A stretch of DNA of 63,404 nucleotides, the filler included, from Hausera hauseri (taxonomy: Eukaryota), in NCBI GenBank assembly GCA_046269625.1. It is 12 parts of 12 records of this genome, joined end to end, with 100 filler letters (N's around TTAATTAATTAA, not from the genome) between each part and the next. Parts side by side here need not be neighbours in the genome. Positions count along the whole stretch, not along the records: positions 49,995 to 54,617 come from JBJURY010499574.1; 11 more parts are not named here. One strand, given 5' to 3'. The notes beneath the pieces were generated by a model, which saw nothing but the letters and a program-made list of their open reading frames with translations, did not search any database and was not told where the DNA came from. Positions 12,601 to 54,617 of this stretch are shown here, in pieces. The stretch's first letter is position 1. The number at the start of each line of letters is the position of its first letter. A program made the position numbers and the translations under genes.

Positions 12601-13963
12601 ATCGTCTAAATGAATTGAATAATCAGAAGCGAAAATTGGACGACTTTAAAATACCAGATAAGGAAAAGTAATTAACCATAACGTGAAGCTTATCTTTATA
12701 CTTCTTTTCATTAAGAATTATCAGCCGATTGAATAAAGTCATAGAAAAAATGAACGACTTAAAATCAAAATATGGTCAGAAAGAATCAGCTTTGAATGAA
12801 GAGTTAGAGTTTGCACAATTCAAAGAAAAAGCTGATGAGATCAACGAATGGGTCGACGACAAACTTATAGCAATTCACGATGACAATTACAAAGAGCTGT
12901 ATAATTTACCGGAGAAGCTGAAAAAACACAAGGCACTCGAGGCGGAAGTAAAGGCAAATTATCCGGTTTTGGAGGAAATCAACAAAAAAGGCCAGAAATT
13001 GATTACTGAAAATCATCCTCGGAAAGTTGAAGTTAAATTGATTCTTGACGGTGTAAATGATCGTTGGAAAAAACTAAATTTCGGTACGGATGATAAAGAG
13101 AAAAGGTATCAACAGGCTCAGGAGGAATGTCAGTTGAACGAGGAAGTCACCGAGTTGTTGGAAATGTTAGAAGCAAACGAGAATTTGTTAAAATCCGGAA
13201 AATTGGGAGATGATCTTCGAACAGCGAAAGTGTTGCTCGGAAAACATAATGAATTGGAAGGTGAATTGGACGGCATGAAAGCTAAATTGGATCAGCTGCA
13301 AAAGAGGGCCAATAAAATGGCGAAAGATGGCCATTTCGATTCTGATCGAATATTAGATGCCGTCGATAAGTGGTTTCGAGAAAAGGAGGATTTGGCTGCT
13401 GCAAATGCAATTGGAACCGACTTGAGTCATTGTCAGTCTCTTCAGTCTGAGTTGGATGAACCTGTTGATGGAAAAAAGGTGGACAATGACAGAATTAATT
13501 ACATAATTAAAACAACCGAAAAATTACTGAAGCAGAAAACTATTAGTCCGAATGAAGCAAACAATGTTAAATCCAGAAGCAGTACGATTGAAAATCGTTG
13601 GAATCGATTGAAGCTAGGTCTTGATAAATATCGAAAGGCCTTCAATGAAGCCCATAAGATGCACAAATATTATGCTGAATTAAGTGTACTCAGAGATCAG
13701 ATAAAAGATCGATTGAAAATGGTAAAATCGAAAGACCTCGGGAGCGATATTGATTCTGTTGAGAAACTTAAAAAGAAAGAAGAATCTATCGAAAGGGAGA
13801 TATCAGTTCTGAAAGAAAAGTTTGAGAACCTCAAAAGCCACGATACATTTGGGGAAAATTTTGATGAAACGCACAAGAACCGAAAAAAGACATCCTTGGG
13901 AATGTTAACGGCTCTCTTCAGAGCCACAATTATTGATTTTAATGAGGCTACGGAACCTCTTGA
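9596..13963 (+). CDS. Beta-heavy spectrin (karst/SPTBN5-like), partial; spectrin repeats plus SH3; frameshift near 12010 and intron 12668-12715
   Basis: Beta-type repeats ENYHD...YGKHL..EDLLEKH; SH3 at about 11339-11510 (NNDWWLV..GYAPANFL); LAGASSIDLFNKT; DDNYKELYNLPEKLKKH; joins ORFs 9596-12025, 12066-12671 and 12729 onward. Confidence 0.88.
10334..10745 (+). CDS. Ribophorin II/SWP1-like segment embedded in frame within the spectrin ORF
   Basis: Signal-peptide-like MDLWLIIFRIISSAFSLE, then beta-rich VDESKQIILNFSL...YDINF...GVYKLSITLRD; clearly not a spectrin repeat. Confidence 0.4.
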
Positions 13964-21800: not shown

Positions 21801-22934
21801 ATGGTCAACGTACCACAAGCAGACATGGCAGGCTCAGTCGGATACCTGATGGAAGTCGATCTCGAGGTATCATATGAGCTACATGACGTTTTGGACGATT
21901 TAACGGTCGCACCATTTAACAAATGTCCGCCAGGCTCAAAAGTGAAGAAACTGTTCATGATGCATGAACCGAAGCTGAATTACGTGGTCCATTGGCCTCT
22001 GCTAAAGTTCTACATGCAGCTCGGTGTACGCGTCACACATCTGCATCGTGCAATCCGATTTGCTCATACTCCCATATTCAAGACGTACATAGATAGAAAT
22101 TCATAGAAAAGAGCCACAGCTTGTACAAAGTTCGAAAAGGACTACTACAAGCTGAAAAACAATTTTCTGTACAGAAAGACAGTGGAGAATCTGAAAAATC
22201 GGCTTAATGTACGCCTATGCAATAGCGAAAAGCAGTTGGTCACGTACACGAGTAAGGCGCAGTTTCGTTGGTCAATGCGCATTGCCGATATATTGGTTTC
22301 GTTGCTATTAAATAGAGAAGAAGTCGTTCTGGACCGGCCAAGTTACATCGGACAAGTAATATTGGACCTGAACAAGTTGCGGATGTATGAGCTACAGTAT
22401 CGCGATTTGGCACGTTACCGGCAAAAGTTTGATGGCTGTGACAATAGTATAATTGCTGGTAACACAGACAGTTTTTTGTGCGGCTGAAAAAAGTCAATCG
22501 CGAACAGCTACTGCAGCAAATGCAGTCAGATGGATTACTGGACACGCCCAACTATCCACTGGATCATCCGTTCTACAGCAGCGCAATCAACAACAAAATC
22601 GGTTGCTTCAAGGATGAAAGTGAAGGTCGGGTTCAGTATCGGGAATGGATATTTCTACGGCCAAAATGTTAGTTTTTTAACTGACGGTGGACCGAAAATG
22701 CGCACCAAAGGAGTTCATTTGGCCCAGACGGAAATAAACCACGGTGATTATCGCAGTATTTATGAAAAAGAAGGATAACAAAAGGCTGTTGTGTCACAAA
22801 CGATCATCCGATCGATTGAGCACCAGCTGTATACGATGACCAATACAAAAGTCGCTTTATCATGCAATGATGATATGCGTAAGTGGGTGGAACGAAATAA
22901 GAATTGGACGTACGGACATTGACGTTTGGAATAA
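18806..22934 (+). pseudogene. pPolB, near full length, frameshifted
   Basis: YTEKGSGW; VVNVKN..KYCFLYSIL; ExoI VYADIE; DHDHFTGRYLG; ExoII FYNFRDYDCH; YLKLDV; YIDINNLYG; KLKNNFLY; motif C AGNTDSF; FKDE; TYGH. Confidence 0.95.
20631..21294 (+). repeat. Tandem duplication of about 332 bp within pPolB
   Basis: RPFL.VVFYNF..YDCHHILKW...RFLDSLQFLNE.LAKVVNPLPNVTIALMQFP occurs twice. Confidence 0.95.
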
Positions 22935-23186
22935 AACACGCACGCATGAATTCGGTGCAGACAGATCACATAACTGTGACTATTCATTGTGATCTGTTTG
23001 TCTTGTATAAATAATGTATATTATTCGGTGTTTTTGCCTTTTGTTTTATTATCATTTAATTTATCTATTTAACTTAATGTGACGAGGAACAATATGAAAA
23101 ACAAACAAAATCAATAAAATTTATTAATCATCATAAGCTAAAATCAAAAACAAAGTAAGTCAAATCAGTGTAAACTTTCCAAGCTT

Positions 23187-23465
23187 TCATTTTGGTGATT
23201 TAACGCCGTGCAGATCCTTGTATCTTTCCAAATTCATTATTAGATGACATATAGCTCCTTTCGGTGGCAAAACTGCTTTAACTGCTGCTACTGTCTCTCC
23301 GCCATGTGAACTGACAATTTTCGCCACATTTCCTTTGAGAAAAATCGACGATGTATCTCGGCTATCGTTGTTCAACGCTAAACCACTGTAAACTTTTCTA
23401 ATTGTGTCTTCCATCGTATCCACATCATCGTTGCTGATTTTTTTCACCAATAGATCATATTTCAC
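23187..23465 (-). pseudogene. Uncharacterised Polinton accessory protein (putative SSB paralogue 2)
   Basis: Homologous to 35116-35478 (KY.LLVK.I...D.DT.E.T..KV...L.L.N..RDTSS.FL.GN.AKIVS). Confidence 0.7.
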
Positions 23466-23824
23466 CGCTTTGATTTTGACAGTTTGTGTACATACATAAA
23501 CTGACAGTCTCGTACTTTGTCCATTATTTTTTCTTTCAAGTTCTTTAATTTACAGCGTACCTTTTCAATAGTCTTAAAGTAATTTGTATCGTACAATCGG
23601 TGAATGTACATTTGATTTAATGCAATAATTAGATTTTCTATAGAGCTGCAATCTGTTGCCGTTGCTGTCGTCAATGCTATTGACGCTAAATCTTCTTTAA
23701 ATCCAAGATTACCTGTTGCTGTCGCAACCAGCTCACTATCAAGTACTTTCCACCATCATACCCAGTCTAGAATTGATAATCCATCAAAATTTTGCAACTG
23801 CTTCAATTGATTAACTATTTCCAT
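23462..23824 (-). pseudogene. Uncharacterised Polinton accessory protein
   Basis: MEIVNQLKQLQNFDGL matches MEIVNQLNQLQNFNGL at 34551. Confidence 0.6.
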
Positions 23825-23934
23825 GATGAGTAATATTATTTCCTACCCGTATTTATAGTTTTGGAATTATTCAACTGACCAATACGGCGTAACTTATTTA
23901 CGGAAAGAAAAAATAACAGAGAAATACATTATTC

Positions 23935-24427
23935 ATTTGCAAGAACTATAGTCAAAACAAAGCTGTAGACATTTTTAGTAAGCACAATGTGGTCAATGAT
24001 CGCGATACGGATATCGGATATTGTTAGATACCATCGTCAGCTAGTTGTTTGATGTTGATTTTGAATACATCGTCATTCTCAACTCGAGAAACTGTAAATG
24101 AAGTTGTGTAAAATTTTGCCTGTCAATTTGACCTTTAATGTAAAATATTGTATTTTCTATGTCAAAACGATTACAAATCTTTTCCATAATGCACATCGCA
24201 CAGAAAATTGAATTGCCTTCATGACAATGAAGTCCATGACGACATCGAAAGAGAAATCCGTTTGTAATTTTTGCTTTTCCGTCAGGTCATTCCACACAAT
24301 ACCGGGCTTCAATATGTACACAAGAGGTTGGAAAATTTTATGGACGTCCATAATGCATAATTCCTTTATTATGTACGGGCATTATCATCTTGGAAATCTT
24401 GAATATCTATAAATCCTGTCGCTATTA
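23935..24427 (-). pseudogene. DEDD/RNase H-fold nuclease-like protein with C-terminal Cys/His cluster
   Basis: GFIDIQDF...IIKELCIMDV...VYILKP; ends YPYRDH.PHCAY; orthologue of 33967. Confidence 0.6.
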
Positions 24428-24489
24428 CTTATCATGTACAAAATCATTTTTTGTTTATAACGCAAACAAAACAACTAAGTATTATTATT

Positions 24490-24980
24490 ATTATTATCAT
24501 CACAATAATTAAATATAGGTGGTTTTGTCCATATCACCAAAGCCAAATTCTTTGCGTTCATTTTGTGTTGTTTTCGATTCATTAACGCAAAACCGTCCAC
24601 AATGTTCCGGTGACATTACACTGAATTCTGCCTCTTTAAAGCGAAGAAAAAGACTTGTGCGATTGCAGTGTCTTTCGAAAACGCTTACGGTTCACCGGAT
24701 TAGTTTTTCAGCAACATTTTAATTTCATCACGAAAATTTGAATCAGTGACGCGGCCCACAACCGTCAGTCCGAGCTTTGCCAGTCCGCTTTTGGATAAAC
24801 GTTGGCCGTAATAACCCGATGGAATCGCCAGTCAAATCCCAATCGTTATGCCTTTGATTTTGCTGTCCAGAATTGTATTGACATTGGAAACCACATCGTA
24901 ACCTGCACTGTTTGATGTAACACGTCTCGGTACAAAGGCATTTTCGTCTGTTAAGACAATCTTTACATCATTCATTATCA
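24490..24980 (-). pseudogene. dut: dUTPase, frameshifted
   Basis: PRRVTSNSAGYDV; PSGYYGQRLSKSGLA; TDSNFRDEI; IAQV; RKEFGFG. Confidence 0.9.
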
Positions 24981-25068
24981 TTATTTTTATACAAATACTA
25001 AAATTACACGTATATTTATACTCGTTAATTGGGTTGATGAAAGAAGAAGAAGAACGGTAAAACAAAAT

Positions 25069-25443
25069 TTATTGATAATTAAAATGTGCTTCAGCTACAC
25101 GCCAAATCGGGATTTTGATACCGACTTTTTCCTTGTATCCTTGCAATTCAATATTCAGTTGACACTTTAAACCACCACCACCATCATCATCACTATCGGG
25201 TACATGAGACATTTCGCTACTGATAAAATCAAACAATTTCGTTTTCTGTATCGGTAAATCGACAGACTGCTGTTTCACGGTTGTTTCGTTTAACTTTAAA
25301 TCCACGTTTGATTGATGCAGCGCATCAGAAAGTTTATCCAAATTTTCACCCGAAAGCCGTTTTGCACGATAGCTGTACTTGAGTGCACATAGAGACACGG
25401 GATCATTCAATGAAATCAGTATGGGCGTTTGCAGAAAATGCAT
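25069..25443 (-). CDS. Uncharacterised Polinton accessory protein (putative SSB paralogue 1)
   Basis: HFLQTP...LKYSY...KCQLNIELQGYK...IPIWRV; degraded orthologue at about 32990-33345. Confidence 0.6.
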   Translation of the reverse strand: MHFLQTPILISLNDPVSLCALKYSYRAKRLSGENLDKLSDALHQSNVDLKLNETTVKQQSVDLPIQKTKLFDFISSEMSHVPDSDDDGGGGLKCQLNIELQGYKEKVGIKIPIWRVAEAHFNYQ

Positions 25444-25837
25444 TTCATATTTGCGAAAAATTCGTTTCTGTAAAAATATCTGTGTTTGGCGCGCCGACGG
25501 TTTTGATTTTCATTTACGTATTTCAATCATTCATTTCGCCTTTTTAATGTCAATCTTGCTGCTGCTGCTGATGTCGATTTTTGAGCAAGTTCGTGCTTCG
25601 ATTCCAGACAATTGCTCGGTTTTTCTAATTGTTGGACAGGTTCCAGCAGTTTGATATTAGAATTGTCCTTTTTGTAGCCAAACAACCACGACCAATCTGA
25701 ACTTTTATCATTGGCATCATTAAGTAGAATCGTTTTGNNNNNNNNNNNNNNNNNNNNNNNNNNNNNNNNNNNNNNNNNNNNTTAATTAATTAANNNNNNN
25801 NNNNNNNNNNNNNNNNNNNNNNNNNNNNNNNNNNNNN

Positions 25838-26300
25838 TTTATACACGTCTTTTAATTTTGCTAACGCATCACATCCAAGCATAGCTTCAGCTACTAGTTC
25901 ATCAGCTATTCTAAATTCTTATTCAGATTTTTGGTTGAGGATTTTGTTTCACATTTAGTCAAATCTTTCACTTGTATTTTAGTTCCAAATGCTTCAGTCT
26001 TCGTAATATCTTCTGTGGGTTTTTGTAGTTTCTTTTTTAATTGTTCGGGCAACTGTTTTCGCGAAATCATTCAAGCCGATACTCCTGTGTCAATTATTGA
26101 GGTAATGGGATAGCCATCTATCCAGATTATCGTTCTTGGTATTACTTTGCCTCCATCTATACTGGTTATCAATGCCTCTTTCGGGAAGGATAAGTAAAAC
26201 GTCAATTTTACATGCTTTGGATCATAATTGTCTATATCGCTCGAACAATGTATTTCTATGCATTCGTTAGGAGACATGAAATGTTGTTGTTCTATTGGAT
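25838..26300 (-). pseudogene. Retropepsin-type aspartic protease
   Basis: IWIDGYPITSIIDTGVSA and downstream AMLGCDAL. Confidence 0.85.
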
Positions 26301-26404
26301 ATTCATTCTACCTTTTCATTTGAGGAATATCCGATAGCAGGGTTCTTGGTTTCTTACTTTGGGCAGTAACTAAACTCCATGTTCTTTTAGTACCTTCAAT
26401 TGAT

Positions 26405-28356
26405 TTAAATTTTTTTCTTTGTCTTCTTTACTGAGGGTTTGTTCTCATCAATACTATTATCATTGTCACCATTTTTGTTTTTATTTTTCTGTTTCCATTC
26501 AGCATCCTTTTTTATCAAAAAGCAAATGGCTATGGATGGAATCAGTGCATAAATAATTTTCCAGGTACACCCAACAGCTTGTTTGATACCATATTCCTTG
26601 GTTACCATAGTCAAAATTGCTTTTATAAAGGCAAAAGCGTAATAAAATCCCAGCCATCCTGAATTAAACTGACCGAACTACATGTACCATCCCTATGCGG
26701 TTGCAAATATGTTGCAAATATGAGCGATACGCTTAGCATAATTGGGTCCCATTAAATTTTTTCAATTAGCTCTACCGGTATGTTCAGACAACACCTTCAT
26801 GGCCATCTCCGTTAACACATTTTTGCCTTTGTTGCGGGAACATCATCATTCTCCTATGATTTTCCATATCCTGTTGTGAATATACACCCATCTTGACTAA
26901 GTCCGTTAGTGGTTTATATGTTTGATCTGTTTTCGAATTGATTAAGCTGATCCTTCTGGATGAGATAATCTGTTCTTTGTCAGGCATTCGTATCCAATAG
27001 TCGTTACTCAACCTAAATGTTGGAGACATCGTATACGTACAATTTTGATGTACAAGTGGCTTTTCCATAGGATCTAACAATATTTTAGTAATAGGTTGTA
27101 AAAAGCGTGGCTTTTCCTTATACCAAACAGGTAGTTCCATAGTACATTCTGTAATCGGTCTTAGGTTAACAGCTACTCTCGCACATTCAAAGGTTACGAG
27201 AGCTTCACCCATTGTTCTTGCAAATTTCCCTTCCGCGTCAGGTGATTTGGCTGGGTCTTTTATTGTACCATCCGTTATTGCTGACAAGTATATTTGATTT
27301 ATGATTATTTCCCTATTCAACTTGCAGTCATTTAATATTATTTCACTATACATTGCATAGATATTTTCTTGTTGGAAGTGATAGATAAAGTCAATTTTAT
27401 TGTCAAAATAAAAAATGTAGTTTTACTTCTGATTTATCTATGCTTCTTTTCGCTTCGGTTATTCTAGTTGTTGATAAGAATATGCCTTTATAATTAGTTC
27501 TATATATTACTTAATTACATTTTTTTGTATCAACTACTATTTTGAATCTCATCTCTTCACTTGCGTCTGCTGAGTATACTATAGTTGGTGTTTCGATTGT
27601 ATCCGATACTTGGTCTAATAGACTTTTAGATATTTCTTCATTATATATTTTTCCTTTTGTTTTATTGAACTTCACACTTCGTAACAAAGCTAACTGACAC
27701 TTATCCCTGTCGACTTCGTATTACATGATCGACTCACCAGTTTCACATTCTTTATTATAATAATCGCATTCGGGGAATGTCATAATTTTTCCCGATGATA
27801 ACTCAAAACAGCATCATATTTCATTAACTCAACTTGATAATCCTCAATAGCTACAACATTATCGACGATTTCACCATTAATATTATATGATTCACCTTTA
27901 CAATATCCCGTTTTGTCGATAGTTCCAGCCACAAAAATTCTCTTATTTATAATTTTTCCTTTTTGAGCTTTGAGTCGAATATTTCCGATATTTATTTGTT
28001 TTGTTACAAAGGCTTCTATACACATTCGCTTACTTATCAAAAGTGGTTCGAACGGAGTAGTTGGTTCAACTACAGTCGAATTTCGGTACCAGTATCCACA
28101 GATAAAATGAAAATAATTTTTTCGAACGAAACATTCTCTAACCTTGGTTTTCGCAAATTCTGATTCCTGATACACATAATATTCTTTTTCTGACATTGTA
28201 GTTAGTGACGCTGGATTAGCGAATGGACATTTTTCTAAATCTAATAAGAAATATGTTGGACCTTCCTTGGCTTAGCTGCAGTCATAAGCAATAATTGAAA
28301 GTGTTTTTGGCATCAGACTAAACAGAAGAAGTATGGGTATAACTTTGGTTAGCCAT
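26405..28356 (-). pseudogene. Chuvirus-like envelope glycoprotein (element E1)
   Basis: IIAYDCS...LLDLEKC; FICG; GYCKGESY; DCKLNR; GKFARTMGEAL..FEC...C..ELPVWY...FLQPITKIL; C-terminal TM region. Confidence 0.85.
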
Positions 28357-28478
28357 GATAAGTCGAAAACTGGTTGTTGGTTTCGTTGTCTCACTGATTT
28401 CTGAGGTGGAAGATATTCCATTTGCTGTTGTGTAGTTGGTGACAATTCATGTATTGTTGTATGGACCAGACTAGTAAT

Positions 28479-29589
28479 TCATTCACCTCTGCACTTTACC
28501 AATCCCTCAACATTGGCCTTTAAAGCTCTTGTAACAATTTCTATATTTCTCACTATCTCTTCCTGATTCGGATTTACACCATTCATTACCATTATCTTAT
28601 ATAAAAGATAGGATATTACTGTCATGATTTTATTTCGGGATATACCGGACCCCATCATTCTAGATAATATATCTCTTTCCTGGATTTCATTTATCCTCTC
28701 ATCCGTAGGGATATCTGCAAATTGTTTACTAATCTTTGCGATCTCATTCATTATAACTTGCATTAATGAATCCGGTATTTGTAGATTAGTATTAAATTCA
28801 ACGAATGTATTGTGCATTCTTGCTAGCAAAGTTTGTAGTAATGTTGCCAGCGATACATTATCTACGCCGTATTCATCTTCCGTTGTTAGCAATATTCAAA
28901 CGATTTCGTCATCTCTGGCTTTCCTGCCTTTCAACTGATAAAGTTTTGTTGTTCCTTTTGGTCTGCCACGATTTCTTTTATCCGTTTGTTTTTGTTCTGA
29001 TATTGGAATGTTCACCCCGTTTCTACTTGTTGAGCCTCATGCTTATGTTCGATTTTCTGTGTTTCTTTTTGCCTAACGTCGGTGATGATTTCGTCAATTA
29101 TTTCTTGTTCAAACTATTTATAAGTAATACACACAGGATTTTATCAGTTTTTACAGATACCTACTTCATATAAGGTTTCGTAATCCAGCAGAGTGCGTCC
29201 ATTTAAACGCAACTGTATTTCTCCTCGAGGCTGAATAAGCCATTAATATTATTTTTCAGTGTCATTATTTTATCCAATGACTTCATTCTTGGAACATAAA
29301 AATCTTGGTTATACTGTTGTAGCGTAACCATTACTTCAGGGTTTTCTCGGACTGTCCTTACTCTATCCGCATATCGATAAATTATATATCGTACGATATT
29401 CTGATATGGGCTTGTGCCCGCATCATACATTAACAGCAAATCCAATAAATTAGCAAATTGTTTATGGCTGATTGTTGGCGATAGTAGCATAGACAGATAT
29501 TGCCTAAACCGAGTGACATCGATTAGTTCTTGGTTAGCATAGCTAGATATTTTCCGAACTACTTCTACGCCATCCTGATCTAAATCCAC
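28479..29589 (-). pseudogene. AT-hook-containing ORF upstream of the glycoprotein (E1), interrupted
   Basis: ORFs 29203-29589 and 28479-28892 with KRNRGRPKG between them (about 28950-28980); homologous to 51326-52369. Confidence 0.65.
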
Positions 29590-29966
29590 AAATGATGACT
29601 CAAAACTTGGGGATTTTTCCTTTATTTTCTTTTTCCTTATTCTTTTTATCTTTTTTTTGGTTCAATTTCTCCACTTGACTCCTTCTTTTTACTTTCAGAA
29701 GGTAAATTGGATTTCGGAGTCTTCAGTTCTTCTTTCTGTATCAAAGGTTTATTCTTCTTCTTAATCCTTTTTTCTAGGTATCCGATTCTGATACGACAGT
29801 CTTTTTGGGTCTACCAATAGGAGTAATAACTGAATTTTTATGATTCATTTTCTGTCTTCTCTCATANNNNNNNNNNNNNNNNNNNNNNNNNNNNNNNNNN
29901 NNNNNNNNNNTTAATTAATTAANNNNNNNNNNNNNNNNNNNNNNNNNNNNNNNNNNNNNNNNNNNN

Positions 29967-30735
29967 TGAAATTCGGAAAACCTCATCGCTCCAGTTCTGA
30001 TTGAAATTCTTAATGAATGGTGTCGTACTCAGCTTTGAAATACGTACATAATCACCGATTTTATACTTGGGATGTTTAGTTGGTAGTCGTTGTGGTCAGT
30101 TTTGGTAATACCACATGTCCAGATCATCGATTACGTCAACCGGTCATAATCCATTGATGCCACGATGTGTTGAATGATTGTATGCATGAATAATACCCGG
30201 CAGTACATCTACCCAGAGTTTGTTGCCTTGCTTCGTAAAAAATTTGTTTCGGCGACCGCGCAATGTTCGATTAAATCTTTCAACGAGTGCAGCCTTGTAT
30301 TAGGAAAACAGCAAACCGTTTCAAGACCGCTGCAACGTGAGCGTTGTAGAATTTCTTACCCAAATCCGTTTGTAAATGCTTCGGCTGTTGTTGTTGTATC
30401 AATATTTGAACAGCGTTGGTAAACTCTTCACCGGATTTAGATTTCACAGCAATTGCACGTGCAAAACGACTAAACACATCAACGCACATCAGCACATACC
30501 CATACGCATCGTTGATGCTTGCGTACGGAACCATTTCCATCAGGTATATTTGCTATACATTATTTACACCGACAGAGCGGTATGTACGAGTTGGAAACCG
30601 CCTTCATATCGGTTTGTTTAGGCTGTATGCTAACCGTTTCCCGAGCCAACGTTGGGTCTGTTGCCGAGTCTGTTTGACAGTCTTTGCCAGTATACCAGAC
30701 GGGATGACGCGGATCGAACAACACGTCGTCCATCG
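29967..30735 (-). pseudogene. Polinton retroviral-like (rve) integrase
   Basis: YSLNKP..RRFPTR; YVLMCVDVFSRFA; LQTDLGKKFYN; KYKIGDYVRIS...NWSDEVF. Confidence 0.92.
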
Positions 30736-30868
30736 TTGCCGTCGGTGTCGATTATATCGTTTTTATTACAATTAGAAATTAGAACAAAACGTAAATGAAA
30801 GATTCGGTAAACTGGGGCACAATATGAAAACCATGCACCCATATCGCTGAATTATCACATGCTTACCA

Positions 30869-31252
30869 TCATTGTTTATAATATGCTGCAGAACCAATGA
30901 ATCCACCCAATAATGACGTGACAATCGATAGAATTGTACCAAGGAATCCGCCGTCTTGCTTGTACATGACCTCTCGTTTCAGTCGTTTACTACGAGCGTT
31001 GGCAAGGCCAATGAGTCGTTTTCGATACTTTATTAAATTCCGTTTTGCACTACCAATGTCAACGTGACCCACAACAATATTGTACAAAACTTCCATCAAA
31101 TCGTGCACAACAAATTGCGAGAATGATCGCAGCATGTTTCGCTCATGTCTCGTAGATGCCTTAAGCAAAGCAATAAAGTACGTCTGACAACGTTTGGATC
31201 GCTTTTTTGGACGTATTGACGCTGAGACGTAGTTGTTTATAACCGTTTCCAC
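30869..31252 (-). CDS. Small basic Polinton protein with QxGGFL motif and amphipathic tail (adenovirus pX-like)
   Basis: EVLYNIVVGHV...KYRKRLIGLA...KQDGGFLGTILSIVTSLLG. Confidence 0.75.
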   Translation of the reverse strand: METVINNYVSASIRPKKRSKRCQTYFIALLKASTRHERNMLRSFSQFVVHDLMEVLYNIVVGHVDIGSAKRNLIKYRKRLIGLANARSKRLKREVMYKQDGGFLGTILSIVTSLLGGFIGSAAYYKQ

Positions 31253-31398
31253 TGTGACGGTAATTTGCGTCTAGATGCTGTTCGAAGCACAGAATTAATT
31301 AATCGCTTGACTGTAGCGGTTCGTTTTAATACACGTTTCTTACCGGACACCCTCTTGGTAGGTTTACGTTTAACAATTGTTTTTCGGAAATTCTTCAT
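31237..31398 (-). CDS. Small K/R-rich protein, possible DNA-condensing core protein
   Basis: MKNFRKTIVKRKPTKRVSGKKRVLKR...WKRL directly after the ATPase. Confidence 0.5.
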   Translation of the reverse strand: MKNFRKTIVKRKPTKRVSGKKRVLKRTATVKRLINSVLRTASRRKLPSQWKRL

Positions 31399-31399
31399 T

Positions 31400-32010
31400 T
31401 TATCGCAATCGTGTCGTCGATTTTCGAATTTGTTTACAGACGTGTACACCTTTCTGATTGAAAATATCTGTTCGTACACGCATGTCATCGGGACACTGTT
31501 GTGCAAAGTCAATAAACAGATAGCCATGCGGTTTGTGCGTAGCATTATGATATGCGTCTATTAAGTAGGCTCGGTTGAGGAAATGCTTGTCGTGCAACAT
31601 AATCAATGATAGTCTGATCACGGGGATTTATGAAGAACACTAAGTAGTGTTCGTTTAAATTTCTTGTTCGATGCTACCCGCCCTGATGTAACATGTTTTG
31701 CGTAATGAAAATAACCGTCACACCAGGGTGTCGTGCAATCTTCGTGAACAGGTTGTTGAAGTCGGTTTGACAATAACGTCACCGATGCGTAATCATTCAG
31801 ACCAGTTCTCATCAAACCCATCAATTGCGGTTATCAATTTCAGTTTACAAAATTCCTGTTGCCAGTAAATGTGATTTAACAGCGCCGATTGCAATATGTC
31901 ACGGTAGTTCGGAAGCAATTTGCAAAGTGCGTTTTGCCACTTCCACTAGGGCCTATAATCTGGAAAATGGCACTATTCTGCAGCTTCATGTCGTTCGTGA
32001 TGCATTTCTC
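31400..32010 (-). pseudogene. A32/FtsK-like packaging ATPase, frameshifted
   Basis: Walker A IIGPSGSGKT (about 31930-31960); C-terminal DAY..AT.KPHGYLFID...DDMRVRTDIF. Confidence 0.9.
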
Positions 32011-32066
32011 ATATTTTGTTTATAATCACACAAATAGGTGCAACATGAACACTATTTCAATCAATT

Positions 32067-32530
32067 ATGATAGCCAATATCAACTACCACGGAATTATTG
32101 AGTGCATTAATGCACTGCCCTTTAATCAATGGAAGCCGAGGCATTATGTCCGCCAATGTCCACCGGATATTAAATGCATTATATTTCAATCGGGAAAGTG
32201 TCGCATTATGGGTTGTCGAAAACGAATCACAAATGACAGACATCTACCATTCGGAATTGTCATTGACCAAATTCAATCAATAACAGTAACGAATCAGTTA
32301 CATCGCTCACCTCCACAACCACCACAATCAATTAATCTACACAAATTAGCAATGTGTACCGAATGTATTTATGAGCTCGAACTGTTTCCTGCACTGCGAA
32401 TAACATTATTCCGCCCGCTTTGTGTCAATGTGTTTATTAGTGGAAAAATTGTATTGGGGATTCGGTCAATCAACCATGAGACGACTATTGATCAAATTAA
32501 ACACCACATAAGTGTTTTACTGAATCAAAG
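32067..32530 (+). CDS. Divergent TATA-binding-protein-like protein (ORF reads through to 32792)
   Basis: Two TBP half-repeats: IIFQSGKCRIMG and IQSI...INL..LA...YELELFPAL...VFISGKIVLG. Confidence 0.8.
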
Positions 32531-32573
32531 TAAATGGACTATAAATATCACTCATATTCGCTCAAACATTACT

Positions 32574-32934
32574 ATGATGGAAAACGATGATAAAACGACT
32601 CTGCTCAATAATACTACTGACAATGACGAAAGTACACATTGGTCATGGCTGTTTGGTGACAAGAATGACAATGACAACTGTCTGGAAACGAAACCTGTCC
32701 AACAATTAGTAAAACCGATATTAAAACGGCAAGGGAGAATTATTGGTGGTAAAAGAATGTCAGACAAAGATAGCGATAATACTCAATGGTGATGATGATA
32801 AGAGTTACGATTTGTCACGAGTGCTTGGTAGCAACAATTCTAATGTCAACTGTCTGGAACCGAAAACAGAACCTGTCCAACAATTAGAAAAGCCTAAATT
32901 AAAACGACAAGCGCGAATGACTAATGGAATATAG
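32574..32934 (+). pseudogene. Low-complexity accessory ORF with internal duplication
   Basis: NCLE...PVQQL.KP.LKRQ.R twice; WSWLFG also at about 25680-25700 on the minus strand of copy C. Confidence 0.5.
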
Positions 32935-33420
32935 AAACAAAAATTAAAGCCCACGCATCAAACACCGACATTTTTACAAACGCGACGTTTTCGAAAGTAT
33001 GAAATGCATAATCTGCAAACACTCGTACAAATTACGTTGAATGACCCTGTGTTATTGACCACACCCACGTACAGTTATCGTGTATAGCAGCTATCGACTG
33101 AAAATTTTGCGAAACTTGGTGATGCTATAAGTCAATTAAACATGGACTTAAAGTTGAACGAAAAAGCCTTAGAACAGCAATATGTCGTTTTACCGGCAGC
33201 AAAATCTAAACTGATTGATTTTATCGGTCGTGAAATGTCTAGTGCCCGATGATTTAAAATGTCGACTCAACACTGAATTGCACGGATACAAAAAGTACGG
33301 TGTCAAAAGCCCGATTTGGCGTTTGTCTGAAGCACTTGATTACCAATAAATGTTGTTGCTGTTTTAAGTTTCTTCAACAATGAGTATAAATATACATGTG
33401 TAATGGGCTTTTTAATAATA

Positions 33421-33890
33421 ATGATAACGAATGACGTAAATATTATTTTGACGAATAAAAGTTCTACTGTACCGAGACGTGTTACGGCAAGCAGTGCGAG
33501 ATACGTGTTTTCAAATGTCAATGCGACAAATTCGGACAGCACAATCAAATGCATAACGACTGGGATTCGATTGGCAACTCCACACGGTTACTACGGTCAA
33601 CTTTTATCGAAAAGCGAACTGGCAAAGCTCGGACTAACGGTTGTGGGTAGTGGTTTCATTGATTCAGACTTTCGTGGTGAAATTAAGGTGTTGCTAAAAA
33701 ACCAATCCAGGAAACCGTATGCTTTTTTGAAAAAGCAGTGCAATCGTACAAATCGTTTTTCATCGCTGTGAAGAGGTGGAATTCAGTGTAATGTCACCGG
33801 AACAATGGGAATTGTTTTGCATCAATGAATCGACACGAAATAAACGCAAAGAATTTGGCTTTGGTGATATGGGCAAAACCACCTATGTTT
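33421..33890 (+). pseudogene. dut: dUTPase, frameshifted
   Basis: PHGYYGQLLSKSELA; GFIDSDFRGEIKVLL.N; RKEFGFG. Confidence 0.92.
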
Positions 33891-33966
33891 AATGATTGTG
33901 ATAATAATATTAGTTAATTGTTTTGCTTGTATTATAAACAAAAAATGATTTTGTACATGATAAGTA

Positions 33967-34455
33967 ATGGCGACAGGATTTATAAATATTGAAGCTTTCC
34001 ATGATGATAATGCCCGGTACATAATAAAGGAATTATGCGTTATAGACGTCGATAACATTTTCAAACCGCTTGTGTACGTATTCAAGCCTTCTGTTATGTG
34101 GAATCAGTTGACAGAAAAGGCGAAAATTACCAATGGATATCTCATACGATGTTGTCATGGACTTTATCGGGACGAAGGTAATTAAACGTTTTGCGTATCA
34201 TGTATCATGCTAGACATTTGTGATCGTTCCGACATTGAAAATACAATATTTTGTATTAAAGATCAAATTGACAAGCAAAAGTTTGCGCAACTACATTCAC
34301 ACTTTTCCGAGTTGCGAATGGCGACGTATTCAATATCAAACATCCGGCTGGCTATGGTAGGTGATAATATTAGATGTCCGTATCTGAATCATTGACCGCA
34401 TTGTGCTTACAAAAATGTCTACGGCTTTGTATTAACTATGTTTCATGCAAATAAA
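33967..34455 (+). pseudogene. DEDD/RNase H-fold nuclease-like protein
   Basis: GFINIEAF...YIIKELC...VFKP...NGYL...HGL...G; CPYLNH.PHCA. Confidence 0.6.
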
Positions 34456-34550
34456 TTTATTTATTTGTTTCTTTCTTACTGTAAATAAGGTCCGCCGTAT
34501 TGACCAGTTGAATAGTTCAAAACTATAAATACAAATAGGTAATAATAATC

Positions 34551-34800
34551 ATGGAAATAGTTAATCAATTAAATCAATTGCAAAATTTTAATGGATTATT
34601 AATTCCAGACTTGGTACAATGGTGGCAAGTACATGATAATGATTTAATTGCGAGAGCAGCAGGAGCATTTACTATGAATGACTTTTAATACGGACAGCAT
34701 CACAAGTGTTATTGACCATTTGTCTACTGTTTACAATGAAAGCAAATAGATTGGAACAAATTTGATCACTGGCTTCATTGACCGTTTGTGTATTGTTTAC
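34551..34800 (+). pseudogene. Uncharacterised accessory protein
   Basis: Orthologue of 23462-23824; TATA box about 25 nt upstream. Confidence 0.5.
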
Positions 34801-35103
34801 AATGACAGAAAGCTAATTGGTACATACTTGATCCATTGTTTACAACGAAAGTAAACCGATTTGAACAAATTTGGTATAAATATGGATGTCTTTTCATTTC
34901 ACTTTGCCTCTAAAATATCTGCACAACAAAAGAACATCATTTGAATAAACAGCAACAACAACAACAATACCGACAATTCAATTGTGAAAAGTTGCAGTAA
35001 GTCCATTTCATTTTGACCTTTTCTCCTTAATGAGTCCAAGTACGGCCCGTGTTCCCTCAGACAGTCCAGAGCGTACAACGTGTTCAATCTACACTTCCTG
35101 TAA

Positions 35104-35478
35104 ACTCCCATTCTAGTGCAATTACCAACACCGATCAAAATGAAGCAGGTAAAATATAGCCTGTTGGTAAAGAGAATCGGCGACAGTGACTTGGATACAT
35201 TGGAGGAAACGATGAAGAAAGTGGACAATGATTTGATGTTGTCGAATAATATTCGGGACACATCCTCGCTTTTCCTTAATGGCAATATGGCAAAAATTGT
35301 GAGTGCAAGTGGACAAACAGCATTTTTGCCAACGGAAAGGGTAAAAGGATACCTTACAATGAAGCTAAAAGGATATAAGGAACTGAGCGGTATTAAATCG
35401 CCAATGTGGAAGTTTGGGAAGTTTGCCCTAATGAATAGACTTGACCTTCTCTTAGTTATTCGTGTTGTTAGTTTATGA
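35104..35478 (+). CDS. Uncharacterised accessory protein (putative SSB paralogue 2)
   Basis: TPILVQLPTP...VKYSLLVKRI...LTMKLKGYK..GIKSPMWKF. Confidence 0.65.
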   Translation, partial: TPILVQLPTPIKMKQVKYSLLVKRIGDSDLDTLEETMKKVDNDLMLSNNIRDTSSLFLNGNMAKIVSASGQTAFLPTERVKGYLTMKLKGYKELSGIKSPMWKFGKFALMNRLDLLLVIRVVSL

Positions 35479-35769
35479 TTCATAATAAAATTTATTTGAC
35501 TTTTTGGTGTTGTTTTAGATTAATATCAAAAAGTATTTGAGTTTACAAGTAATGCGATTTTTCAATTTATTTTCGATAACCCAACTTAAGCCCCATTTCC
35601 TTGTTATAAAACAGAAGACAAAAACTAGTGTACAAATACCTTACTGATAATATATAACAAAACATGTACAGCAGATGAATGTAAAATAAAGATCACAAAT
35701 GTCAATGATCTAGCTGGACTGAATTGCATGTTTGCACTGAACTGTTTGTGAACACTAAACGTGTGTTAT

Positions 35770-47524: not shown

Positions 47525-49894
47525 AACAACAAAAACAACAGCAACTTTAACAACCATAACAGCATCTACAACAAAAATAACAACAAAACAACAACAATAT
47601 CCACAAAAGAACAACAAGGACAACAACAAGAACATCAATAACAACAAAAACAACAACAAAATCAACAAAATCAATATAAACAACAACACTACCAAGAACA
47701 AAAAAAACAAAATAACAACAAGAAGAACAACATCAACAACAGCAACAACAAGAAGAACTGAAAAACAACAACAGCAGCAACAAGAACAAGAACAAAAACG
47801 TCAAGAGCAACAATAAAACAACAACAAAGCAACATCAACAACATGAAGAAGGACAACAACATCAACAAAAAGGACCACAAAAACAAGAAAAAGTACAACA
47901 AAAACAACTACAACAACAACAAGAACAGCAAAACATAGAAACAAAACAATAAAAAGAAGAACAACAAGAACAATAAGAAGAAAAACAACAACAAGATGAA
48001 GAACAACAACAACAACAACAGCAAAAAATAACAAAAATAACAACAACAACAACAACAAGATTCACACCAACAACAACAACAGCAACAGCATTAACAACAA
48101 GAAGAACAGCAAAACATAGAAACAAAAAAAATAAAAAGAAGAACAACAAGAACAATAAGAAGAANNNNNNNNNNNNNNNNNNNNNNNNNNNNNNNNNNNN
48201 NNNNNNNNNNNNNNNNNNNNNNNNNNNNNNNNNNNNNNNNNNNNNNNNNNNNNNNNNNNNNNNNNNNNNNNNNNNNNNNNNNNNNNNNNNNNNNNNACAA
48301 AAACGAAAGCAACAAAAACAACGACAACATCAATAACAACAACAACAACAGTAATAAAACCATGAACAATAACAACAACAACAACAGCAACAAGGACAAC
48401 AGCAACAACAACAACAACAATAACAACATTAACAACAACAACCACGACAACAACATCAACAACAAAAACAAAGACAACAACAGCAGACACATCAACAACA
48501 TGAAGAATGACAACAACAACAAATAAAACAATAAAATGAACAAAAAAATAACAAAAATCAACTACAACAACAACAAGAACAGCAACAGAAATAGAAAAAA
48601 GAAGGAGAAAAAGAAGAAGAAGAACAACAATAATAAGAAATCAACAACAAATTGAAGAACAACAACGACAACAGCAACAGCTACAAAAGCAACAACAACA
48701 ACAGCTTTAGCAACAACAACAACAACAACAACAACCAAAATAACAAAAATAAGAGCAACAAAAACAACAACATTATCAACAACAACGACAACAAAAACAG
48801 CAACAACAACGACAACAAAAAGTACTTCAATAACAACAACANNNNNNNNNNNNNNNNNNNNNNNNNNNNNNNNNNNNNNNNNNNNNNNNNNNNNNNNNNN
48901 NNNNNNNNNNNNNNNNNNNNNNNNNNNNNNNNNNNNNNNNNNNNNNNNNNNNNNNNNNNNNNNNNNNNNNNNNNNNNNNNNNNNNNNNNNCAAGAACTTC
49001 AACAACAACAGCAACAACAGCAACAGCAACAACATCAAAAAGAGCACAAAAAACAAAAATAACAACAACAACAACAAAAACAGCAACAACAAAAAAATCA
49101 ACAACAATAACAAAAACAACAACAACAACGACAACTGCAACAACAAGAATACCAACAACAACGAAAACTACAACAATAAAAACAACAACAACAACAGCAA
49201 AAAGAACAACAACAACAATTGCGACAACAACAGCAATAACTACAACAACAATAACAACAACAACAAAAACAACAGCAACAGCAACAACAAGAAGAAAAAC
49301 AACAACAACAAGAACAACAGCAACAAGAAATAAAACTATAAAAACAACAGCAACAACAACAACATGAAAAGAACAAGAACAACAACAATTACAACAACAA
49401 CAGCAACAACAACGAAAACAACGGCAACAACAGCAACAAAAACACTAACAACAACAACAACAAAAATAACAATTACAACAACGAAAACAACAACAGCAAG
49501 AAAAACAACAAGAATAACCACAAAAACAACACACAACAACAACAACAACGTCAACAAGAACAACAGCAGCATAAACAGAAAAAAAAAGGACAGCAACGAC
49601 TATAAATGCAACAACAACAACAACAACAATAACAACAAAAACAAAAACAACAAAAACAATAAAAACTACAACAACAAAAACAAAAACATCAACAACTACA
49701 ACAATAACAATTACAACAACAACAACATCGACAACAACACCAACAACAACAACAACAATAAGAGTAACAACAAAAACAACAACAAAAACAACATCGACAA
49801 CAACAACAAGAACGACATCAACAATAACAACAACAATAATAACAACGATAACAACATCAACAAAACAGAAACAACAACAAGAACAACAACAATA
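45195..49894. repeat. Degenerate (AAC)n/(AAG)n low-complexity satellite with gaps
   Basis: Directly visible; strongly A/C-biased on the + strand. Confidence 0.97.
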
Positions 49895-49994: not shown

Positions 49995-51212
49995 GTTTTG
50001 ATATATGACCGGCAATTCTTGAATACAGCGTTTTTCTTCCACGTTTAAAGATACTTCCCGTTTTCCGCATTCGTAGGTCAGCAAGATTTCTCCGGTCACT
50101 CTTCCAAAAATGCCTTCTTTCATTGAAATTACTGGCGATGCTAGTTCTGGATTTGCTTATATTAAGGCTAGCTTGGTCCTCATGATTTCCATATCCAATC
50201 TACAATCATTCGCAATCACTTTGTTATATAATTCTGCTAGTCCAATTTGTTCTTTATAATAGAAGAAATCATCTCTATTATTTAAATAGTCTTCTATTCT
50301 TACGTCTTGTGTTTCCAAAGCAAATGTAGTTATTGCGGCTTTCGCCACAAAAATGCTTCATAATTGGTGGCGTACATTACTACGTTGCATTGAGAGAGCA
50401 TTTGCTTCTTAATGATTTTCAATCCGTGGTCCTCGGATATCACTATCGTAGGTGTAGATTGTTCAGCCACGTCCTTTCTTATCGTAGCATTGTTGTCGCT
50501 CGTGTCCACATATCTTTTTCCCGTGGATTTGTTAAAATTTATCTCTTTTATTTTAATAAAGTTACAATCATTAGTAGGTGGTGGAGTCCAAATGACTATC
50601 GAGTTCCTGAAAGTACAGGCACCATCTTGGATGTGACACTTCTGATTTTCGGTATATGTTTTGTGACACTATTGAACATCACTTTTGGTTCTTCATCTCT
50701 ATCTCATAGAAATCGACCACTACTATTCCTGATTCTCTTCCTTTTCCTGTATCGTACTCACCTCCTTTACAATATCCTGTGTGCATATCCAGTTTTACAA
50801 TTGCTATCTTATATACTCAAATTATTTTTCCCGGTTGGGCTTCTAACTCCATTCCATCCCATCTTAATCTTCCGGTTTCTTTAGCTTGCTTACACTGTTG
50901 TCGATCTAAATCCATAGGGATCAGTGGGGTCGTCAGTTTTACTATCGACGAATGTCTATGCATGTTTCCGCAGTGGAAAATGCTCCGCGAACTTCGCAGC
51001 ATGCACTCTATTCCGTCTATTGCAATTAACTTGCGCTGCTTATATAAAAAGTACTTTTTCTCAATCGTTACTAACTTGTGAGGTCGGGCGTCTTCGCATA
51101 ATTCCAAATCCATTAAGGAATATCTTTGACCTACCTTAAATTTATCGCAGTCGTATACCGTGATTGCGCATAGTCGTCCTAATAGCATTATAAGCGTTAT
51201 CAGTTTAATCAT
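49995..51212 (-). pseudogene. Chuvirus-like envelope glycoprotein (element E2), frameshifted, truncated by linker
   Basis: Signal peptide; ITVYDC...YSLMDLELC; FHCGNMHRHSS; GYCKGGEY; NDCRL; GIFGRVTGEI...EC...CIQELPVIY. Confidence 0.87.
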
Positions 51213-51325
51213 TAAGTTTGATTCACTATCTCGCGCTGAGTTAGATGGTATTAAATTTCTTACTACATTTTCAATTCGAGTGGTCAGCCTGTTTCCATCT
51301 TCGTCATCGAATAGCCTCGACCAAT

Positions 51326-52369
51326 TTATTTCCTAGCAGCTTTTCTGATCAATCCAATGGTTCTATTGAATTCATTTTCTTTCAGAATGTTTGCTTTGAT
51401 TGCCAAGTACAATATTACTTTCCTTAATTTATCCTTAGAATTCTCTACCATAATTTTCTCAATTAGAACTTCGTCAGGTAAGTTGCCTTTGTTCATTTTC
51501 AACCAAAATGTCCTCATTATCTTTTCCGCATTATATATTGCATTTTCTTTTTCATCTAACATCTCGTTCCTTGGTCCCGAATAGTTCACTATTTTGATAA
51601 TGTATCCCAGCAACTCGTTTAACTCTTCGCTATCGGAGTTAATCCCGGGAATGGATAATTGCATTAGTTCTCGTATCAAGGCTTCACTCCGGTCACTATC
51701 ATCTCTTATTTTTCTCGGCCTTCCAACTGGTCGTTTTTGTTTCGGCGCAGTTGGTATTTCTTCGCTCATCGATACTATATTCTTATCATATCGTTTCTTA
51801 TCTTCCTCACTCTGGAGGTAGTCAAAATACATGACAGGGTCTCTGACTCCCATAATGCGTCCTACGCAGTGTTCATCTCTTGCTTTTCTCGTAGCCTCAT
51901 CTTTTGTCTGTTCGTCGGTAATTATAGCCACTATTCGATTTGATTCCTCCGGAATAATTCCAACATCTATTAATAGCTCAGATTCGTCCAGTATTCTACC
52001 TCGGAAATATAATCGGTAATTTACTTCATCTTTTCCACCGTTTCGTACTATCCATTGTTTTACTGCTCTAACCGATGTCATCGTTGTGCATTCAGTTTCT
52101 TTTCCTTTCATCCATTCAGCAGATAATTTTACCTTAACCGTCGTCTCGGGTTTAGCTTTTAAGAAATCAGCGTATTTCTTTATCAGTAATCTGGGTACTG
52201 AGCTATAAACGGTATTTTCGCTTGATAGTTTTGTCAATGTAGGGATCAATTGTCTCAATTTGCTCCCCGTCATGTTGACGTTAATCTGCTCAATTAATTC
52301 TCTCTCGGCTAATGCGGGATTCAATATCATTTCCACATTAAATCGTCGATCGATTTGATGGGTATCCAT
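51326..52369 (-). CDS. Intact ORF with ubiquitin-like domain and AT-hook
   Basis: TSVRAVKQWI..NGG....YRLYFRGRILDESELLIDVGI (UBL); KRPVGRPRK (AT-hook). Confidence 0.75.
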   Translation of the reverse strand: MDTHQIDRRFNVEMILNPALAERELIEQINVNMTGSKLRQLIPTLTKLSSENTVYSSVPRLLIKKYADFLKAKPETTVKVKLSAEWMKGKETECTTMTSVRAVKQWIVRNGGKDEVNYRLYFRGRILDESELLIDVGIIPEESNRIVAIITDEQTKDEATRKARDEHCVGRIMGVRDPVMYFDYLQSEEDKKRYDKNIVSMSEEIPTAPKQKRPVGRPRKIRDDSDRSEALIRELMQLSIPGINSDSEELNELLGYIIKIVNYSGPRNEMLDEKENAIYNAEKIMRTFWLKMNKGNLPDEVLIEKIMVENSKDKLRKVILYLAIKANILKENEFNRTIGLIRKAARK

Positions 52370-52379
52370 TAGTTAAAGT

Positions 52380-54617
52380 TGGATGGGCGTCTTCGGATTT
52401 TGGTTGTATAATTCATATATATAAGCATCCTATCCTGAGTCATCTGTAACATCTGGAATTCCACAATCTAACAATGCCATAAACGTGCTTCGTGCATTTT
52501 CACGGATTTCGTTTAGTCTTGGCTGTATTTCCTTCATCAAGTTACTTCGAAATTCTACTCCGTTTCCACACGCAAGTTGTATCGTTTTCAGTGTGGGTCC
52601 TAATTCGTCTGTAGGAAACAACCCTTTTATTTCATAGTCCGTTAATTCGGTTGTTACATCTGTTTACCATCTTTGCACGAATTCTCTTCGATTCGTTAAC
52701 TCTGATTGCGTGATCTTATATTTATTCTTCTAAGCATCCAATTTTTTGCCTAATTCATCTAGCTTCGTAGCCTTTTGCTTTGTGCGAATCCACAATTCTT
52801 CTATATCCTTGACTTGAGTTGTCAATTGTCGTGTCTTATCGTCATCTATTTCTGCCATTGTCGATAGTAGTGATATTAATTCGTACATTTCTTTTAGAGA
52901 TTTCGAATCAGGATCTATTTCTTCAATCAGCCTCTTTACGAATTTAGCTTCGTCTGGTGTAAGGCGATGATCATTGGTTATTTCTATTAATTCAGCGTGA
53001 CCATTCTGGTCGGTATCTGATGCCCACTCAAAAGGACGATGTAGGTATTTTAGTACTTCTTCTAGCGCTTTCCGATGATTTGGACAAATATCCAATGTCG
53101 ATAGATCACATATGGATATTTCATCTATAGGCCTTCTTATCAAATGTCATACACCTTCTAGGCGGACACCCTTTAGTTTCATCGATAAGGAGGAGATCTT
53201 TTCCTGTTTAGCCGATAATTTCATTTCTTTGATTATGTTATACAATTTTTCTGTGAGTTTTATTTCCTGACCGTTACTCATAAATCTTAGTCTCAATAAC
53301 GCGTTTAATTCAACTCGAAGGTTTGCCTCTATTTTGTAAACATCTAGGTTGCGGAGTATTTCTTTTAACTGTTGTTTCAATATCGGTTCACGTTCCAACT
53401 ACTTTATTAAACGGTATTTCGTTAGACTCATTAATCTGTCTAATACTTCAATCCATTCTTTGAGTTGGTTATTTATCATTTGTTTCGCATTTATTAAATT
53501 TTCTAATCGTTCGTAGGCGTCATTCAATTTATCATCTGGACCCTTAATATAGTCCATTACTCCTTTTATGTAGTTAATGTCCTTCTTATATTCGTCTAGT
53601 TCTAAAATACATTGTCCATTATGATTTGTACTTCTTCGTTCTCCGCATACATTATTTTATTCCTACATCTGTAGATTTTGGAGCCCCTTTATCTTGGAAG
53701 GTTATGCGAATTCCTATATTTGCATATTCATTTGGTGCGTTGAACGCGATCTTACACATTTTCATTATGAGAGGAATGTCTACAAGTTCCATGCCTAGTA
53801 TTGAAAATTCGTTTACATCCAATTTGTATATTGGTTTATTTTTGAGGTGATAGATTACTGCACTCTCTATTTCTACCATTAACGTCTCTAAATTCCGTTT
53901 TGTTCGCTTCTGTTTTGAATCCATTTCTAGTGTCTTTAGTAATCCTTGGGCAGTTGCCACTTTATTCTTAATTTCTATCTCCTGATTATTCCATGTGTCG
54001 GTGAAGTTGATTCCGCTTTTTATCTATGAATCAAGTTTTGCTTCCATTCGTCAATTGACTTCTCCATAATTTCATACATTTCTTCTGGTTCTTTCTCTTT
54101 GTTAATGTCTTCCTTAAGGTATTGTTTGAATTCTTTATACATTCTTTCGGCGAATTGCTATTCCTTTCCTGACACATCTACTTGAGTTTTTATATGCATT
54201 AATTCTTCCAGATTGTGACGTATTGTCTCCGTATCTGTTGGTCCATCCTAATTTCTTTTAATTTCTTTGCATTTTCCAGGATTTTTTTATCCTTTCCGTC
54301 TAGCTTTTTGATTCGTTCTGTGCCATCAATCTCGTTTTCGCTATCAGGTAATGGACATATCTCATTTATCTCATTGTTCGCATCTCCTACTGTTACACTT
54401 GTGCTTGGATTATCCGTAACTTCAGTAAGATCCACATGTGGAGTGTCTAAGTTCGGAGTGTCCTCTACGTCAGCATCTCGGACTTGAGTTATCTTTGCAT
54501 TATCTCTTTTTAATGGCGATCTTGATCGACCCTTTGACTCCCTTTTAAGTGATGGACTACGACCTCTATTTTTCGTTATTTTAAGGACTAATGGGGCTAT
54601 ATATTCACTTTCGATTT
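52380..54617 (-). pseudogene. Long degraded coiled-coil ORF of E2 with RS-rich N-terminal part
   Basis: Same-strand collinear fragments 54199-54435, 53652-53960, 53147-53398, 52730-53143, 52430-52621. Confidence 0.5.

Follow-up and report, generated by a model that had tools for sequence, protein, structure and literature searches.

Giant Ty3/gypsy retrotransposons of planarians, known as Burro or GYPSM1, encode one polyprotein that combines Gag with CCHC knuckles, a Ubi2/SUMO-like and a BCL-2 domain, an in-frame envelope protein (Env) related to mononegavirus fusion glycoproteins, and a protease (Arkhipova and Yushenova 2019, PMC6431247; what we say of this and the other papers cited refers to the sections consulted). 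These elements exceed 30 kb, their open reading frame (ORF) 1 spans ~4,900–5,100 aa with further MATH/TRAF, BIR, ankyrin, SMC-like and dUTPase parts, copies in decay, with stops and frameshifts, are on record, and the authors proposed, as an idea put forward there without a test, that the elements meddle with apoptosis and ubiquitination (PMC6431247). GAG-ENV-POL errantiviruses with an ENV of the HSV/gB type have also been described in Nematoda, Bryozoa and Platyhelminthes (Chary and Hayashi 2026, PMC13524379). Here we analysed a window of 63,404 nucleotides from the Hausera hauseri assembly GCA_046269625.1, which is made of short contigs of separate records with artificial N-TTAATTAATTAA-N spacers in between, and in particular the stretch at positions 51,326–52,369, where a 347-codon ORF lies next to an env. 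The stretch is a remnant of a Gag-Env-Pol polyprotein that has decayed and is Burro-like in its architecture and domain order, on which the membership rests. With a probability of roughly 0.75, we interpret it as an accessory block of a decayed Ty3/gypsy-type polyprotein that likely managed the host cell rather than built the capsid. The identity of the block, i.e., a helical domain, a ubiquitin-like (UBL) domain, an AT-hook and a likely Bcl-2-fold domain ahead of the Env signal peptide, is highly probable.

The arrangement was found on two contigs of the window, referred to as E1 (25838–29866, 4.0 kb) and E2 (49995–54617, 4.6 kb, including the stretch itself), which are physically unlinked, with spacers between them, and whose features all lie on the minus strand. 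A preliminary description of the locus had claimed that both contigs share an env-adjacent block of helical domain, optional UBL insert, AT-hook and second helical domain, and the block is indeed shared; the three motif pairs it quoted are present, and the class III fusion protein family PF24664 adjoins the block directly downstream in both. In E2, the longest stop-free segment of the decayed Gag-Env(-Pol) frame (51329–52369, 347 aa) holds a small helical domain (52154–52339, placed with a leave-one-out profile and an E1-family model) that directly precedes an integral beta-grasp UBL (51917–52144) and is conserved with it in relatives, an AT-hook with a GRPR core and basic flanks (51701–51736, Pfam AT_hook E 0.19), and a C-terminal helical domain in the place of the Bcl-2-like domain (51329–51697), whose BH2 end is shortened and cut by a frameshift. 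These are followed by the hydrophobic Env signal peptide (51156–51221), the first hydrophobic stretch of the whole frame in a hydropathy scan, and by a broken class III (gB/chuvirus-type) Env ectodomain that runs off the contig end (49995–51155, PF24664 E 2.7e-14). The upstream part of the same decayed polyprotein (52375–54617) comprises an RS-rich basic stretch and a coiled-coil-rich region, and the contig carries no capsid. The ~430 coiled-coil-rich residues at 52400–53656 (minus strand), upstream of the block, constitute further cargo, for which neither a family match nor a match among the fetched relatives was found.

In E1, a first AT-hook (29801–29824) lies upstream of the helical domain and UBL (29024–29610), where a frameshift near 29230 divides the UBL (tblastn of the relative P0014: residues 369–493 at 66% and 499–566 at 68%). 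A second AT-hook (28899–29036) and a Bcl-2-like domain interrupted close to its end by one in-frame stop (28420–28895; one frame with P0014 residues 570–1002 at 74%, leave-one-out score 33 bits) follow, and the block reads into the signal peptide in one frame with a single stop crossed. The signal peptide and class III Env with its transmembrane end are broken (26410–28370, PF24664 E 1.6e-32 and 5.8e-14), and downstream of them lies a retroviral aspartic protease (25909–26307, Pfam RVP E 0.0024, below the curated cut-off), which places Env before Pol. This protease is the only representative of Pol on the E1 and E2 contigs, neither of which carries a reverse transcriptase (RT). The UBL of E1, divided as it is over two frames, contradicts the earlier statements that only E2 shows a UBL and that the UBL is an optional insert.

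Intact relatives show how the parts belong together. The E1 Env as query returned a single protein (P0001), and phmmer with P0001 against 1.84 billion representatives gave 663 matches, the relatives being drawn from the best 150 of the 663; their records originate from ENA, JGI or a mislabelled-looking metagenome-assembled genome (MAG). The E1 family has an intact member in P0014 (1130 aa; 65–74% to E1 over residues 369–1002, tblastn), which presents in one frame a capsid-like N-terminus, a CCHC knuckle (197–212), an AT-hook, the helical domain, ubiquitin (473–522), an AT-hook, Bcl-2 (651–748), the signal peptide and Env from residue 793. Gag thus runs through the block into Env in this protein, while in P0007, P0009, P0016, P0018 and P0152 Env runs on into protease, RT, RNase H and integrase within one ORF, which is the Ty3/gypsy Pol order. 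A capsid and zinc knuckle sit upstream of the block position in the same polyprotein in P0014, P0006 and P0018, and the idea that the stretch encodes a nucleocapsid or matrix protein in its own right was therefore abandoned. UBL and Bcl-2-like domain are both present in P0014 and P0013. The helical-UBL unit is kept in P0006 and P0007, where the signal peptide is reached without a Bcl-2-like domain, which implies that it is the Bcl-2 part whose presence varies. P0001, P0003 and P0005 begin too late to reveal a UBL, and P0012, P0018 and P0019 proceed from Gag to Env with neither domain. In an Env tree of 28 rows, all cargo carriers fall in one group (support 86/91, not firm), with the cargo-free long leaders outside it; E2 forms a long branch grouped with E1/P0014 (88/78, likewise not firm). 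P0011 looked UBL-like by eye, failed the leave-one-out comparison (−1.8 bits) and was not counted. DNA context for the relatives was sought among viral and metagenome contigs and phages, and none was found. Several relatives (P0152, P0006, P0009, P0003) carry more than one aspartic protease domain per polyprotein, with seven Pfam stretches in P0152 (4,844 aa, also with ankyrin and C2H2 domains) and four in P0006. Exonuclease-like inserts, DEDD-type by eye and with no Pfam match at the thresholds used, lie between Gag and Env in P0013 (~660–770) and P0016 (~110–290). P0007 (HBK71150.1) is a 2,627-aa Env-Pol polyprotein labelled as a protein of a Flavobacteriaceae MAG, probably a eukaryotic contamination of the bin.

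The features in common with Burro-like elements, as these are presented in PMC6431247, are an Env that is read in one ORF with Gag before it and Pol after it (Gag-Env in P0014, Env-Pol in the five proteins named above, Env then protease in E1), an Env related to mononegavirus fusion glycoproteins (PF24664 in E1 and E2), and a ubiquitin/SUMO-like followed by a BCL-2 domain directly before Env, which applies to the E1 family and P0013, while E2 has the UBL and a marginal Bcl-2 part. In contrast to Burro, the E1 family ends the Env signal peptide within ~810 aa, with none of the extra Burro parts before Env, and no match to BIR or MATH was obtained in P0014 or the E2 frame (ankyrin was found in P0152). 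AT-hooks receive 0 mentions in the consulted text of PMC6431247, though Grohme 2018, cited there together with Jurka 2007, may already note them. The additions to what is known are the AT-hooks, the conserved helical-UBL unit, the optional nature of Bcl-2 and the existence of a compact natural version.

Similarity between E1 and E2 taken pairwise is limited. The quoted pieces are within chance (reached by 122, 173 and 241 of 2000 shuffles), as are the N-terminal helix (3835/5000) and C-terminal helix (442/5000), while the X-bridged whole is modestly supported (24/5000) and the comparison of UBL with UBL holds (15/5000). Homology becomes clear only via relatives: E2 scores 36.1 bits over residues 26–153 against a helical-UBL profile built without E2, a value reached by 0 of 500 shuffles. 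Word-based homologue searches gave no match to the E2 segment, nor any to P0014 residues 385–760 among shorter proteins, phmmer with E2 alone found nothing significant against PDB sequences or the fetched relatives, and a single-sequence AlphaFold model of E2 was of low confidence with no meaningful fold match. Pfam ubiquitin matched E2 at E 0.011 and the UBL segment alone at E 0.00086. As had been anticipated, the central segment has a beta-grasp fold, with a beta-beta-alpha-beta-beta-beta topology that superposes on ubiquitin, and the first helical domain forms four helices in the E1-family model (pLDDT 74–89). Fold lists filled by ubiquitin contained no Bcl-2 row, and no listed match spoke for the TFIIS-N/LEDGF-IBD-like fold considered by eye for the first helical domain or for capsid or chuvirus N, the last two being without a match to the block in Pfam and profile comparisons as well.

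The last helical domain is likely Bcl-2-like, a feature missed in the preliminary description. Pfam Bcl-2 matched 4 of 10 alignment rows (best E 2.3e-5; E 0.013–0.055 for P0014), the profile of the domain matched Bcl-xL at E 0.0035, and its model, five helices at pLDDT 60–79, found adintovirus Bcl2 as the best Bcl-2 structure match (probability 0.99, E 0.025, TM 0.41 by target). A BH2-type GGW motif (W-x-x-x-GGW type) is present in all five relatives carrying the domain. NWGR, the BH1 motif of the Bcl-2 family, has been lost in 6/6 rows, with only its basic residue kept, and divergent viral Bcl-2 folds are likewise without it. The assignment is marginal for E2 itself (4.1 bits, 17/500 shuffles; 4.5 bits, 23/1000 shuffles), and it is conceivable, if on balance unlikely, that E2 shares the helical-UBL-AT-hook part and carries other helical cargo here, its last domain being no longer, or never having been, a Bcl-2 fold. 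Scores that 2–3% of shuffles reach, the missing GGW and the long branch of E2 in the Env tree would fit such a history. However, weak as it is, the match lies where a Bcl-2-like domain is expected, between AT-hook and signal peptide, and its register is correct, with a hydrophobic core helix and the BH1 position occupied by a basic residue; the Env tree, not firmly, puts E2 with E1 and P0014. The neighbouring motifs are better placed: in 15 polyproteins, five AT-hook cores lie among the 6,668 residues before Env, where 0.16 would be expected, and 0 among the 17,861 residues after, and the Env signal peptide, the first hydrophobic stretch past the block, lies 52–82 residues behind the GGW in five relatives.

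An explanation with a lower chance still treats the UBL as the working core and the Bcl-2-like domain as a passenger, such that the UBL would act as a processing or turnover signal, either through a cut by host deubiquitinases behind it or by directing the Gag-cargo precursor to the proteasome and so balancing Gag, Env and Pol, which a single ORF yields one-to-one. P0006 and P0007, which keep the helical-UBL unit without the Bcl-2-like domain, favour it, as does the finding that the best sequence matches of the UBL are the UBLs of ubiquilins, which bind the proteasome; bovine viral diarrhoea virus (BVDV) polyproteins were also among the fold matches, and the ubiquitin inserts of pestiviruses, in the role generally ascribed to them, provide a precedent. 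On the other hand, the di-Gly behind the last strand is absent in E2 (as the preliminary description had it), P0014, P0006 and P0007, and in P0013 a GG occurs several residues beyond the last strand, after a lysine run. In five rows, the residue aligned with the hydrophobic-patch Ile of ubiquilin varies between Y, H, D, W and Q, which speaks against conserved binding to a proteasome receptor. Together, the missing di-Gly and the variable patch position make it less likely that the UBL is conjugated, cut by deubiquitinases or bound by the proteasome in the classical way. Type II integral UBLs (ubiquilin, Rad23, parkin, BAG1) are alike in their beta-grasp, the lack of di-Gly and their embedding in a larger protein, whereas the UBL of the block is 10–24% identical to them, has an unconserved patch position and has an N-terminal helical partner.

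Both window copies of the polyprotein are decayed, and the E2 ORF is part of a longer decayed frame. That it is stop-free for 347 codons, from 52369 to 51329 on the minus strand, was correctly noted before; that it is preserved as a gene was not borne out. Its frame over 53656–51326 has seven stops in 777 codons, compared with 101 and 68 in the other two frames, and a gap of this length has a probability of 0.20 (6 stops in 776 codons) or 0.19–0.55 (12–18 lesions on the contig). E2 represents a multi-copy family, with 3,535 contig pieces of run X1 placed on it, mostly 80–95% alike and covering 30/30 bins, and 166 and 32 pieces from runs X2 and X3; X1 is not independent of the window because it may be the source sample. 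For five of the six upstream stops, most other copies differ inside the codon and no stop is left: 52375 (457/539 summed depth, 17 contigs), 52432 (524/539, 22 contigs), 52666 (226/291, 16 contigs), 52732 (702/737, 24 contigs) and 53401 (65/65, 7 contigs); the sixth, 53149, was uninformative among the rows listed. The supposed start ATG, two codons past the bounding stop, varies as well (155/329 summed depth), and in one contig an indel changes the frame at the junction of block and Env. The bounding stop and four more before it are thus private to this copy, the ATG varies and the gap is unremarkable by chance, and the ORF is what random decay has left as its longest unbroken piece. The length of the ORF and the ATG near its start might suggest a separate gene kept by selection, either domesticated or a stand-alone nucleocapsid/matrix gene beside env, but this is very improbable and already largely refuted by these private stops, variable start and chance values, together with a broken E1 copy and relatives that carry the block within one ORF. 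Stop-codon reassignment was ruled out, as the stops mix all three codons and are copy-private.

The function of the block as a means of host management is a tentative proposal, to which we assign slightly less than an even chance. From the topology of the polyprotein, Gag and the block would be made in the cytosol, the signal peptide would thread Env into the endoplasmic reticulum, and Pol, following the Env transmembrane helix, would by standard topology be cytosolic again. A signal peptidase cut would leave the signal peptide as a tail anchor 50–80 residues past the BH2 motif, so that the Bcl-2-like domain would be held at a membrane, as with cellular Bcl-2 proteins, until the protease of the element trims it. 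There the domain could make a cell less prone to apoptosis while it produces the element or when it has just been infected. The predicted AT-hooks may bind AT-rich DNA and thereby serve as a chromatin tether for the incoming complex or in genome handling, so that chromatin tethering, which had been suggested before, is plausible. The UBL, together with its helical partner, may engage the ubiquitin system as an adaptor or decoy that cannot itself be conjugated. With more reserve, we suggest that Burro-type cargo could extend beyond the planarian giants, as a module that enveloped Gag-Env-Pol retroelements carry across their clade, here compact and possibly in another animal group, with a core of helical domain-UBL fusion and AT-hook tethers, gains and losses of Bcl-2, and an Env signal peptide that doubles as membrane anchor of an anti-apoptotic domain.

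We know of no such cargo block in Anakin, another retrotransposon with a glycoprotein of this class. Anakin is an LTR element carrying a chuvirus glycoprotein, but belongs to BEL/Pao and not Ty3/gypsy (Dezordi 2020, PMC7642597). The errantiviruses of PMC13524379 are alike in having a gB/chuvirus-class Env between Gag and Pol in Ty3/gypsy elements, whereas Bcl, ubiquitin and AT-hook are unmentioned, and Gag-Env cargo is not described, in the main text as consulted. Viral Bcl-2 homologues, including the Bcl2 of adintoviruses (Polintons), likewise represent Bcl-2-like cargo on a mobile element; they are stand-alone genes of DNA viruses in the account consulted (PMC8502044), while here the domain is fused to the Env signal peptide. 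LTR elements of rotifers also capture cargo (PMC5408684). Troyka, considered as a related system, was rejected, since it is without an envelope (PMC12440569), and bioRxiv 2023.07.29.551099 proved to have no bearing on the comparison. With the stretch reassigned, a preserved gene of its own is dropped as a false lead, and the little-studied envelope-carrying retroelements with host-control domains in their polyprotein gain two divergent families and at least seven metagenomic relatives. The compact P0014, in which UBL, AT-hook and Bcl-2-like domains are separable, would ease single-domain tests of the interference with apoptosis and ubiquitination proposed for Burro.

Elsewhere in the window, contigs bear a gypsy pol, pieces of Polinton type, and genes for spectrin and a TRAPPC11-like protein, from which an animal host can be inferred. 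The contig at 14064–18705 (minus strand) contains ankyrin repeats (Pfam E 3.7e-7), a membrane protein, part of which may be FN3-like, and an exonuclease-like ORF; a kinship of this contig with the post-integrase cargo of P0007 and P0152, suggested by eye, was dropped as no tblastn match was obtained. The contigs at 29967–39087 and 18806–25737 are decayed Polinton/adintovirus-like pieces with PolB-like ORFs (by eye) and a dUTPase (E 1.4e-11), have long inverted matches in common (80–87%), and include a TBP-like domain at 32049–32792 (E 5.9e-9). A long degenerate (AAC)n-type microsatellite scaffold with gaps occupies 45195–49894. Host genes with very short or no introns lie at 8711–13963 (plus strand), where a Foie-gras/TRAPPC11-like domain is directly followed by spectrin repeats with SH3.
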